28,818 nucleotides of DNA, taken from positions 1-28,818 of the forward strand of contig DAOOSE010000002.1 of the NCBI GenBank assembly GCA_035389625.1. The letters run 5' to 3'. Position 1 is the stretch's first letter. Every line of letters starts with the position of its first letter. The stretch comes from a bacterium (GTDB taxonomy: Bacteria; Patescibacteriota; UBA1384; XYA2-FULL-43-10; 1-14-0-10-43-13). Shown piece by piece: positions 6,718 to 8,777 of this stretch. The notes beneath the pieces were generated by a model, which saw only the letters and a list, made by a program, of their open reading frames with translations, was not told the origin of the DNA and did not search any database. Both the position numbers and the translations under genes were made by a program.

Positions 6718-7278
6718 TTACCCTGAAATTATCCCCATCACTATTGGAGTCACATAAGCTTCAATGATTGCAGCAAGCAAGAGCATGGGTACGATTACTC
6801 TTACATATTTCAATAAAGCAATTTTAAAGACATCATCGATCGGCTCCTTGAAAAAGATCAGTCGAAACATTTTCACCCCAAGCCAGAGACCGTAAGTAGC
6901 ACCGATCAATACCGCACTTAGTTCTATAATCCCGTGCGGTAATATTCCGGCTGCCAAAAGTTGCCAGCTGCCGTTCTTTACGATGAGTGGAGTCACCATT
7001 CCTAACAAAAATCCATTTGAATAAATAAAATACAGCGGAGCAATCCCAAAGAAAATCCCAGCAAACATAGCGACCAACACTTTGAACGCATTGTTGAATA
7101 GAATGAATAAAAATATTGCAAAGTCAGGAGCACGATCAATCAGGGCTAAAAATGGATAATATTCCCTAAGAAAGTCCAATGCATCATTACTGTGCAATCC
7201 CTGATAATAGCCCCCTACCATCGAGGCGGCCATCACAAAAAATAAAATTGCATAATATTTGAGGGTTGGTTTCTTCAT
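6718..7278 (-). CDS. SpoIIM-family integral membrane protein
   Basis: Hydrophobic throughout, with FILFNN, NGFLLG and the ILPHGIIEL signature. Confidence 0.85.
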   Translation of the reverse strand: MKKPTLKYYAILFFVMAASMVGGYYQGLHSNDALDFLREYYPFLALIDRAPDFAIFLFILFNNAFKVLVAMFAGIFFGIAPLYFIYSNGFLLGMVTPLIVKNGSWQLLAAGILPHGIIELSAVLIGATYGLWLGVKMFRLIFFKEPIDDVFKIALLKYVRVIVPMLLLAAIIEAYVTPIVMGIISG

Positions 7279-7292
7279 TGGTCTCTTTTGAC

Positions 7293-7322
7293 AAAACTCC
7301 CCCGACTAGTCGGGGGAGTTTT
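7293..7322. terminator. Perfect 30-bp palindrome, probable terminator after the XRE-Hsp20 gene
   Basis: aaaactcccccgact|agtcgggggagtttt. Confidence 0.7.
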
Positions 7323-7333
7323 GGTATTGGGCG

Positions 7334-8071
7334 TTACTTTCGAGTAATTTCCAATTTCTTTGCTTTCTTTTCCTCAACCTTGGGTACCGTGATAGTCAAG
7401 ACGCCATCATTCATCGAAGCATCGGCTTTGTCAGCCATAACCTCGGCGGGAAGCGAAACTGTGCGGGAAAAGCTTCCAGAGTGGCTTTCTTTGTAATAGT
7501 AGCCCTCTTTCTCCTCTTCCTTTTCCTCTTTTTTCTCGCCCGAGATGGTTAGCATGTTATCTTTAACCTCTACCTCGATCTGGTCTTCCTTCATGCCGGG
7601 AAGCTCGGCCTTAACTACCAAAGAATCCTTCTTGTCGATGACATCAATTTTTGGCATCGCCACTCCCGAACGACCAGGAGTAATGACGCTGTCCTCAAAC
7701 AATCGATCAATCGCGTCTCGCAGCGTTACCGCTTCGCGAAGTGGACGCCAAGGTTCTAATTCTACCATGTTCTCCTTTCTCGATCCCGACTGGTCGGAAT
7801 CATTTTTATTAATTGTATCCTCTATCTTTTCTATTCCATTATGTATTTCTCTAATAGAATTCTCAAATTCAAACATATCTTCGAATGCAGAGTTAAAAAA
7901 TTGGCAAATAGTCACAGCTAGCGGCAATGACGGCATAAAACGCCCTTGTTCCAAAGCAATGACTGACTGACGCGAGATGCCAAGCGCATCAGCCAACTCC
8001 TCTTGGCTCAAATTGCGCTGCTTTCTAAGCTCACGCAGTCGGTTCTCAATATTTAATTCATTTTCTTCCAC
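7334..8071 (-). CDS. XRE-family HTH fused to an Hsp20/alpha-crystallin domain
   Basis: The N-terminus RLRELRKQRNLSQEELADALGISRQSVIALEQG is a Cro/C1 HTH. The C-terminus has PKIDV...VKAELPG...GSFSRTVSLP...NDGVLTITVPK. There is no intervening stop. Confidence 0.92.
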   Translation of the reverse strand: MEENELNIENRLRELRKQRNLSQEELADALGISRQSVIALEQGRFMPSLPLAVTICQFFNSAFEDMFEFENSIREIHNGIEKIEDTINKNDSDQSGSRKENMVELEPWRPLREAVTLRDAIDRLFEDSVITPGRSGVAMPKIDVIDKKDSLVVKAELPGMKEDQIEVEVKDNMLTISGEKKEEKEEEKEGYYYKESHSGSFSRTVSLPAEVMADKADASMNDGVLTITVPKVEEKKAKKLEITRK

Positions 8072-8104
8072 TGTGTCCTTATCTTTGTAATAAGTCTTAC
8101 AAGA

Positions 8105-8135
8105 AAAATGTAAAGTAAACTTTACATTTTGTCAA
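8105..8135 (-). promoter_or_regulatory. Promoter TTGACA-17-TACATT overlapped by a perfect 12-bp inverted repeat
   Basis: AAAATGTAAAGT-aa-ACTTTACATTTT spans 8105-8130. The -35 is at 8135-8130 and the -10 at 8112-8107. Confidence 0.75.
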
Positions 8136-8222: not shown

Positions 8223-8777
8223 TTAACGATTAAGATTGCGGTAGAGCATTACCTTAGAGTCTATTCTTAGGTTCTTTGTCGTAATAACCTTTTCTGGCTT
8301 TAAGTCAGGAAATTGAAAGGCAAGGGAAACCACCCTTGTGTCCTTCCCGATGTGTTTAAATAACCATGGCTCAATTTTTGCAAGCACCGAATTTAACAAG
8401 TACAAGTACACAACATCTGCCTGCGCTAAATCCGATTCAACCCTCCGAAAGTCACCCCAAATAATCCGGATGTTCTTTCTCTCCCCTGCCAACCAAACCT
8501 TGAAATTGGCAACCAGATAACAATAAAGTGAACGATCAACGCCAATCCCTTTCGCTCCGAATTCTTTGGAGGCTATTATCAGGCTTTTGCCATCACCGCA
8601 ACCCAAGTCGATCAGAGTCTCGCCGCTTTTTAATCCCGAAAGCCTAAGGGAATCGATGATCGCTTGCCTGTTGGCATATACCGTCGGCGCCCCCAAAATC
8701 GTTGCATAGAGAAGAGAGGCCTCCATGAAGGCAATAAAGATCATTAAGACCAGAAACAGTATTTGAATAGTGATCAT
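8223..8777 (-). CDS. Class I SAM-dependent methyltransferase with an N-terminal membrane anchor
   Basis: Hydrophobic N-terminus, GAPTV, LIDLGCGDGK (motif I) and VVYLYL. Confidence 0.85.
   Translation of the reverse strand: MITIQILFLVLMIFIAFMEASLLYATILGAPTVYANRQAIIDSLRLSGLKSGETLIDLGCGDGKSLIIASKEFGAKGIGVDRSLYCYLVANFKVWLAGERKNIRIIWGDFRRVESDLAQADVVYLYLLNSVLAKIEPWLFKHIGKDTRVVSLAFQFPDLKPEKVITTKNLRIDSKVMLYRNLNR

Follow-up and report, generated by a model that had tools for sequence, protein, structure and literature searches.

A 28,818-nt stretch of Patescibacteria DNA, called the window below, carries on its minus strand a gene that joins a helix-turn-helix (HTH) domain of the XRE (Cro/C1) type to a complete small heat-shock protein (sHsp) of the Hsp20 family in a single open reading frame (ORF). 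Comparative sequence evidence indicates that the HTH of this fusion protein very probably acts as the repressor of a chaperone regulon, and that the fusion is probably the master heat-shock switch in a bacterial class where HrcA was not found in any of 41 genomes. An initial annotation of the window had proposed that the fusion is an autorepressor whose chaperone domain senses heat or unfolded protein, or is titrated by free Hsp20. This overall reading is supported, and the evidence now extends beyond the proposal: the palindrome first seen over the fusion gene's own promoter, and taken for an autoregulatory operator, also occurs at the promoters of dnaK and groESL.

The 245-aa ORF was found where the initial annotation had placed it (Table 1). 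Its N-terminus matches those of its homologs in alignment, and its two domains, as claimed, both score well over their Pfam cut-offs. In an AlphaFold2 model built from a 43-sequence alignment (mean predicted local distance difference test score, pLDDT, 80.8), the HTH is a five-helix domain with pLDDT above 90, a short helix at residues 117–126 lies within the sHsp N-terminal region, and a beta-sandwich at residues 141–231 again has pLDDT above 90. The nearest solved structures for the HTH are the PbsX-family regulator 9k3w (E = 3.7e-20) and CylR2, 1utx (E = 9e-17), and the nearest PDB relatives of the C-terminal part are Hsp16 (3w1z) and Hsp16.9 (1gme); among the solved PDB chains compared, none spans both domains. 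All 43 aligned homologs have S33, R34 and Q35 unchanged at the start of the predicted third helix, the recognition helix. All elements of an sHsp are there: an N-terminal region bearing a W-x-P motif, the alpha-crystallin domain, and a C-terminal anchoring motif of the IxI type, which is L-E-I here and I-x-I in the family consensus. Residues 102–143 align with the N-termini of free Hsp20s. Because a probable terminator hairpin sits just past the stop codon, the fusion gene is likely monocistronic, i.e., a single-gene transcript.

The fusion is, by its distribution, an old and conserved family. All of the top 120 database homologs (55–66% identity, 231–305 aa) contain both domains, and they are named in databases, where named at all, only as 'Hsp20 family protein'. 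Clustering at 50% identity left 44 representative proteins that matched with E <= 1e-30, most of them spanning both domains. Full-length matches were confined to the window's own class when 151 evenly sampled Patescibacteria genomes were searched, and in a search of 121 genomes of the class, more than 50 genomes from many families had full-length matches among the matches listed. The group with the fusion corresponds to Candidatus Berkelbacteria, which are uncultivated, ultra-small bacteria, and includes the complete genome CP011213.1. Divergent fused genes, with 29–37% identity and lengths of 197–224 aa, were also seen at inspected loci. The initial annotation had raised the possibility of a stop codon between HTH and Hsp20 in homologs, lost only recently here. 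No such stop was seen in the top 120 homologs, and a recent loss is excluded because fused genes span most sampled families, down to about 30% identity. Truncated derivatives of 121–151 aa were found at L065:1118-1480(-) in genome G056 and L077:1608-2060(+) in G157, and probably at L222 in G179; they comprise the HTH and, after it, the N-terminal region of the sHsp or the first alpha-crystallin strands, and both dnaK and their own promoter still have operator sites. The 'HTH-only' genes of G056 and G157 are thus not split genes but truncated fusions, with no continuation in another frame.

The promoter of the fusion gene, TTGACA-17-TACATT (8135..8107, minus strand), matches the consensus at 10 of 12 positions, and its spacer and -10 hexamer are filled by the perfect palindrome, confirming what had been noted from the letters alone. 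The long form's leader in the window is about 30 nt. The weaker repeat TGTAA-N6-TTACA that had been pointed out in this leader is present. Its candidacy as an auxiliary operator was rejected, the repeat being unconserved (1 of 32 homologous loci) and its copy number at background, with four copies genome-wide, similar to other spacings.

Table 1. Features of the fusion locus (positions in the window)
Feature	Position	Strand	Remarks
Probable terminator	7293..7322	-	GC-rich hairpin, 14-bp stem, -25 kcal/mol, z = -6.2
Long-isoform coding sequence	7334..8071	-	HTH_3 + linker + complete Hsp20; GTG start, 245 aa, stop codon 7334-7336
Nested coding sequence	7334..7768	-	Predicted free 144-aa Hsp20, Met102 to Lys245
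Alpha-crystallin domain	7346..7642	-	Residues 144-242; HSP20 (PF00011), 85.1 bits, cut-off 20.8
Helix and linker	7769..7885	-	Helix 69-89, then length-variable linker, residues ~90-101; low AlphaFold2 confidence in linker, gap-rich columns
Putative internal Shine-Dalgarno	7772..7777	-	AAGGAG (Lys-Glu codons), then AAC, 3 nt before ATG
XRE/Cro-C1 HTH	7886..8038	-	Residues 12-62; HTH_3 (PF01381), 54.1 bits, cut-off 23
5' leader	8072..8106	-	AAGGA at 8076-8080, 4 nt before GTG
Weak repeat TGTAA-N6-TTACA	8086..8101		In leader; not conserved, probably chance
Putative operator	8105..8130		Perfect 12+12 inverted repeat, arms 8105-8116 and 8119-8130
Conserved operator core TGTAAAG-N4-CTTTACA	8109-8126		Inside the 8105..8130 repeat
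-10 hexamer TACATT	8107..8112	-	Within right operator arm
-35 hexamer TTGACA	8130..8135	-	Operator core begins 3 nt downstream

The core TGTAAAGT-NN-ACTTTACA has exactly three copies in the 1.31-Mb genome to which the window belongs (91% complete, in 241 contigs), and the next-best matches have 3 mismatches. With 16 specified bases in the core, this abundance is far beyond chance. One copy is at the fusion gene's own promoter, the second in the gap between grpE and dnaK, with dnaJ further downstream, and the third upstream of groES-groEL. The sequence CTATTGACAAAATGTAAAGT..ACTTTACA is common to all three, as is a 30-nt layout consisting of TTGACA, 3 nt, the operator core, and a -10 hexamer (TACATT or TACAAT) in the right arm. 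When the genome was scanned with a weight matrix built from relatives' sites, the three sites scored 30–35 bits and no further site was found above the 12-bit threshold. The regulon in this genome therefore appears, on the 91% of it that is assembled, to consist of three promoters, the other 9% being absent from the assembly. The genome also encodes a second, free Hsp20 (locus L002, G000:C57:1789-2094, plus strand) of the EGQLAIDVYQ type, which is 32% identical to the fusion over the alpha-crystallin domain; the same scan found no operator above 12 bits at this paralog. The locus of the fusion was found in one DNA run, from an activated sludge metagenome, and no RNA run was among the runs listed.

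The operator is widespread in the class. A search of 41 class genomes for TGTAAAG-N4-CTTTACA, allowing up to 1 mismatch, gave 95 sites in 33 genomes, as compared with 5 sites for the reversed pattern. A downstream-gene assignment was made for 73 sites, 70 from relatives and the 3 of this genome. The downstream gene was dnaK at 20 sites, the fusion at 18 and a truncated fusion at 2, groES at 10, clpB, grpE and dnaJ at 3 each, clpP at 2, a small EamA-type gene at 2, and ftsH, an M16 peptidase gene and nusA at 1 each; the nusA site, with 1 mismatch and no -35 hexamer, is probably a chance match. The remaining 7 sites, several of them at contig ends, had no downstream gene assigned. A perfect TTGACA stands 3–4 nt upstream of 43 of the 73 sites, with a promoter spacer of 17–18 nt, and at 36 of these 43 the -10 hexamer is TACAWT. 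Retention of the palindrome in relatives had been proposed earlier as a check. Of 32 fused genes, 30 have it just upstream, even at protein identities as low as 37%, and one of the two loci lacking it ends at a contig edge. A site within the spacer and -10 of a near-consensus promoter is where a repressor would be expected, and we infer that repression occurs by promoter occlusion. The EamA-type membrane protein genes (118–129 aa; L099:1407-1793(-) and L102:1394-1747(-)) have a one-mismatch operator and are unexpected regulon members; they are in both genomes of the genus that lacks the internal methionine described below.

We consider the following mechanism, taken as a whole (repressor, regulon, HrcA replacement, sHsp sensor and second product), to be the probable explanation of these results. 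Two HTHs of the long isoform would read the 7-4-7 palindrome TGTAAAG-N4-CTTTACA, and the bound repressor would block RNA polymerase at near-consensus sigma-70 promoters. Its targets here would be its own gene, dnaK (with dnaJ downstream) and groES-groEL, and in relatives also grpE, dnaJ, clpB, clpP and ftsH. Heat or protein unfolding would draw the sHsp part into sHsp-client assemblies and/or alter its oligomeric state, the HTH would then leave the DNA, and the chaperone genes would be derepressed. A free 144-aa Hsp20 made from the same mRNA would co-assemble with the repressor through the alpha-crystallin domain and the IxI motif, and so tune or buffer the response. The sequences themselves show the architecture, the phyletic pattern, the operator with its regulon, and the conserved signals of the internal start; repression and co-assembly of the isoforms are proposed here, and for sensing through the chaperone domain we would place the chances at about even. 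RheA and CtsR are known to sense temperature directly, and the fusion might resemble them: with the same repressor and regulon, its sHsp part would be an intrinsic thermometer in which a temperature-dependent change of dimer or oligomer separates or sequesters the two HTHs, neither unfolded protein nor a short isoform being needed. That sHsp oligomers are temperature-labile is established, the architecture fits a thermometer as well as it fits client titration, and the HTH is like that of CylR2, a type that needs dimerization to bind a palindrome. However, homologs conserve the complete N-terminal region for substrate binding, the IxI motif and the internal start from which a free sHsp would be made, all of which would be superfluous in a pure thermometer, and the truncated variants retain operator sites. 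We thus regard a thermometer as unlikely. A more far-reaching reading, which we offer only tentatively, is that this single ORF constitutes an entire proteotoxic-stress switch, comprising sensor, master repressor and titrating chaperone, that replaced HrcA/CIRCE class-wide. The long form would be made, in most relatives from a leaderless mRNA, and the internal-start product would be the abundant free sHsp; the co-assembly of the two through the alpha-crystallin domain they have in common, shifted by unfolded clients, would determine how much of the repressor is available to DNA.

The second product is predicted from an internal start. The nested ATG reported in the initial annotation, in frame at 7768-7766 and preceded by a Shine-Dalgarno sequence, is present and encodes Met102; 145 of 151 fused homologs have this methionine, whereas the linker before it is variable and gapped. 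Conservation of the internal Shine-Dalgarno-ATG in relatives had also been suggested as a check, and it was borne out at the RNA level. A GGAG, GAGG or AGGA core is located 6–15 nt before the aligned methionine in 32 of 34 homologous genes, as compared with 12.8% (991/7758) of the other in-frame positions of those genes. The residues encoded by the motif vary (KE, KG, GG, EE, RG, NGG) while its nucleotides persist, which argues for selection on the RNA, as a ribosome-binding site. In addition, K-E pairs at this place are nearly always written AAG-GAG, whereas these genes otherwise mostly use AAA and GAA. It is conceivable that only one product is made and that the methionine and the purine-rich codons either serve the protein or are relics of an ancestral sHsp start. 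Free Hsp20s of other Patescibacteria do begin at exactly the position aligned with Met102, so that the methionine could be a remnant, and the short Shine-Dalgarno spacing in the window and the loss of the methionine in one genus fit this possibility. A relic, however, would be expected to decay over a divergence of 30–66% identity, and neither the frequency of the core despite residue change nor the codon choice for K-E is what a relic predicts; a one-product gene is, in our judgment, quite improbable. The internal start is in all likelihood used, and two products of about 28 and 16 kDa are very likely. Ten of 15 relatives have the start codon of the long form 7–12 nt past the end of the operator, which implies a leaderless long-form mRNA in them; the dnaK and groES leaders are 21–157 nt.

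Four lines of evidence lead us to take the fusion HTH as the probable binder of the operator. First, operator and HTH occur together: of the 33 class genomes with sites, 32 have a homologous HTH, the exception being G176, an assembly in 300 contigs, and the 8 of 41 class genomes without sites have Hsp20-only matches and no fusion. A search with the HTH alone in 5 of those 8 genomes gave nothing convincing, and the motif was not found at the groES promoters of site-less genomes. Second, the site is nearly always found at the fusion gene's own promoter. Third, the half-site is nearly invariant, which parallels the invariance of S33, R34 and Q35. Fourth, a search of this 91%-complete genome for HrcA, CtsR and MerR-type HTHs gave no alternative regulator. 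The assignment of the regulon is built on co-occurrence and position, and a different regulator might bind the palindrome, the fusion being a mere regulon member whose HTH serves, for example, to tether a chaperone to the nucleoid. The joint presence and absence of operator and HTH across the class, the own-promoter site, which is what is expected of XRE autoregulators, the matching invariance of half-site and recognition-helix start, and the failure to find an HrcA, CtsR or MerR-type candidate in the genome together make this very improbable. Least probable of all is that the fusion protein activates heat-shock genes, as the XRE-type regulator ClgR does for the clp and lon protease and chaperone genes of Actinobacteria, whose stand-alone HTHs are 55–57% identical to residues 8–67, for a site in the spacer and -10 of consensus-like TTGACA-17/18-TACAWT promoters would occlude RNA polymerase and is not an activator's position.

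Several points weigh against the chaperone-coupled repressor proposed above. Co-occurrence is no proof that the fusion HTH, and not another factor, binds the operator. The internal methionine is absent in two genomes of one genus (L010 in G125, L100 in G173), and the spacing between Shine-Dalgarno sequence and ATG is 3 nt in the window versus 5–6 nt in most relatives. The truncated derivatives argue that DNA can be bound without the alpha-crystallin domain and that not all lineages depend on this domain as their sensor; in some, the switch may have become simpler. Finally, absences from a genome that is 91% complete in 241 contigs are provisional.

A number of other observations were made in the course of the analysis. 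G125 and G173 each have the fusion and 5 operator sites despite having no internal methionine. The genes flanking the fusion in the window are both on the minus strand and without an operator site: directly past the hairpin is a gene for a 186-aa multi-pass membrane protein (6718-7278), and upstream is a 184-aa methyltransferase-like ORF (8223-8777). A second HTH paralog near the window end, hinted at by the coordinates of locus L197, was rejected, there being no HTH at that place, and the hint was a coincidence. The site-less genomes (G153, G154, G155, G156, G162, G172, G174 and G177) represent a subset of Berkelbacteria families without fusion, operator or HrcA. Three loci from them, L201-L203, were inspected; the region upstream of groES in L201 (positions ~1240–1320) has a 19-nt inverted repeat, made up of CCCCTCACATGAAATCAAC and its complement, with TTGAC on both flanks. 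Stand-alone HTHs of about 65–70 aa, 42–47% identical to the fusion HTH, occur in Patescibacteria classes that retain HrcA (G068:C3:49496-49699, G076:C111:6061-6270, G092:C1:38280-38468 and G048:C30:5991-6185), and the database proteins P0136 (1002 aa), P0156 (703 aa) and P0186 (484 aa) contain 5–11 tandem copies of similar HTHs.

The initial annotation had suggested that the switch is independent of HrcA, CtsR and sigma-32. For HrcA and CtsR this held, neither being found in this genome; sigma-32 was not searched for. HrcA (PF01628) had no match in the fusion protein, in this genome, or in any of the 41 class genomes, but 136 of the 144 Patescibacteria sampled from other classes carry it. The best genome matches to its operator, the controlling inverted repeat of chaperone expression (CIRCE, TTAGCACTC-N9-GAGTGCTAA), have 4 mismatches and are at unrelated places. 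CtsR (PF05848) gave no match in the genome, nor was there a convincing CtsR box, and a MerR-type HTH (MerR_1) was likewise not matched; for the HspR-associated inverted repeat (HAIR), CTTGAGT-N7-ACTCAAG, the genome has only 2-mismatch chance matches. The fusion system thus appears to stand in place of the HrcA/CIRCE system of other Patescibacteria. In at least 13 genomes outside the class, hrcA has on its own strand, about 1 kb away, a gene for an Hsp20 whose N-terminus corresponds to fusion residue 102, and grpE lies between the two genes at all five loci inspected (L013, L014, L018, L023 and L026). This hrcA-grpE-hsp20 arrangement, which holds the Hsp20 type nearest to the sHsp part of the fusion, may be the setting in which the fusion arose. 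In a quick tree, of low resolution and from a short alignment, the fusion sHsp groups with part of the hrcA-linked Hsp20s (Shimodaira-Hasegawa-like approximate likelihood-ratio test, SH-aLRT, 93), and the free Berkelbacteria Hsp20 paralogs form a group that is clearly apart (SH-aLRT 100); a single origin is compatible with this tree but not proven by it. We infer that an XRE HTH was joined to the sHsp of an ancestral hrcA operon and that the regulon passed to the resulting fusion when HrcA was lost.

The known bacterial heat-shock regulators include sigma-32, HrcA, HspR, CtsR and RheA. A full-text literature search turned up no HTH-Hsp20 regulator and no description of heat-shock control in Berkelbacteria, and the fusion, whose regulatory role is invisible under the current 'Hsp20 family protein' annotation, is a concrete candidate for the missing regulator, with a defined operator and regulon. 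The distribution of HrcA outside and inside the class would make it a clean natural example of regulator replacement, and the design is a minimal one that suits genomes of about 1 Mb. If the mechanism is correct, it would to our knowledge be the first case of a stress-sensing chaperone covalently built into a repressor, and also the first with a nested start that yields the free chaperone from that ORF. The fusion protein and its 26-bp operator are amenable to testing without culturing.

In comparison with known systems, the fusion is most readily set beside HrcA/CIRCE with GroEL feedback in Bacillus subtilis, where the repressor's palindrome also overlaps the dnaK and groESL promoters and HrcA's activity is coupled to chaperone availability, as we propose for the fusion. 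The fusion differs in being an HTH_3 protein without sequence relationship to the HrcA fold, in having a 7-4-7 operator (TGTAAAG/CTTTACA) as opposed to the 9-9-9 CIRCE, and in that its chaperone module is a covalent, ATP-independent sHsp, whereas that of HrcA is GroEL. HspR/HAIR, with DnaK as co-repressor (Streptomyces, Helicobacter, Deinococcus), is similarly an autoregulated repressor of dnaK and clpB, and it depends on a chaperone that unfolded proteins titrate, but HspR is of the MerR type, neither a MerR-type HTH nor HAIR was found here, and its chaperone partner is separate. RheA-hsp18 of Streptomyces albus and Phr of Pyrococcus are autoregulated repressors tied to a small heat-shock gene, and act as thermosensors; they have separate regulator and sHsp genes and a narrow regulon, in contrast to one polypeptide and the main chaperone set here. 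The small XRE repressors of the CylR2/PbsX type (1utx, 9k3w) are the closest solved relatives of the HTH, and CylR2 binds an inverted repeat as a dimer. They are, however, stand-alone proteins of about 65 aa that have no connection with heat shock and carry neither a sensor nor a chaperone domain. Nested-start pairs such as the 93- and 79-kDa forms of ClpB, or Tn5 transposase and its inhibitor, resemble the predicted isoforms in that the short form shares the oligomerization part and co-assembles with or inhibits the long form; here, unlike in those pairs, a long form acting as repressor would be paired with a short form that is an ordinary chaperone, and we know of no described nested-start pair of a transcription factor and an sHsp. 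In sum, chaperone-coupled heat-shock repression is itself known, and what the fusion would add to it is a regulator family and an operator that are both new, together with a sensor that is covalently attached.

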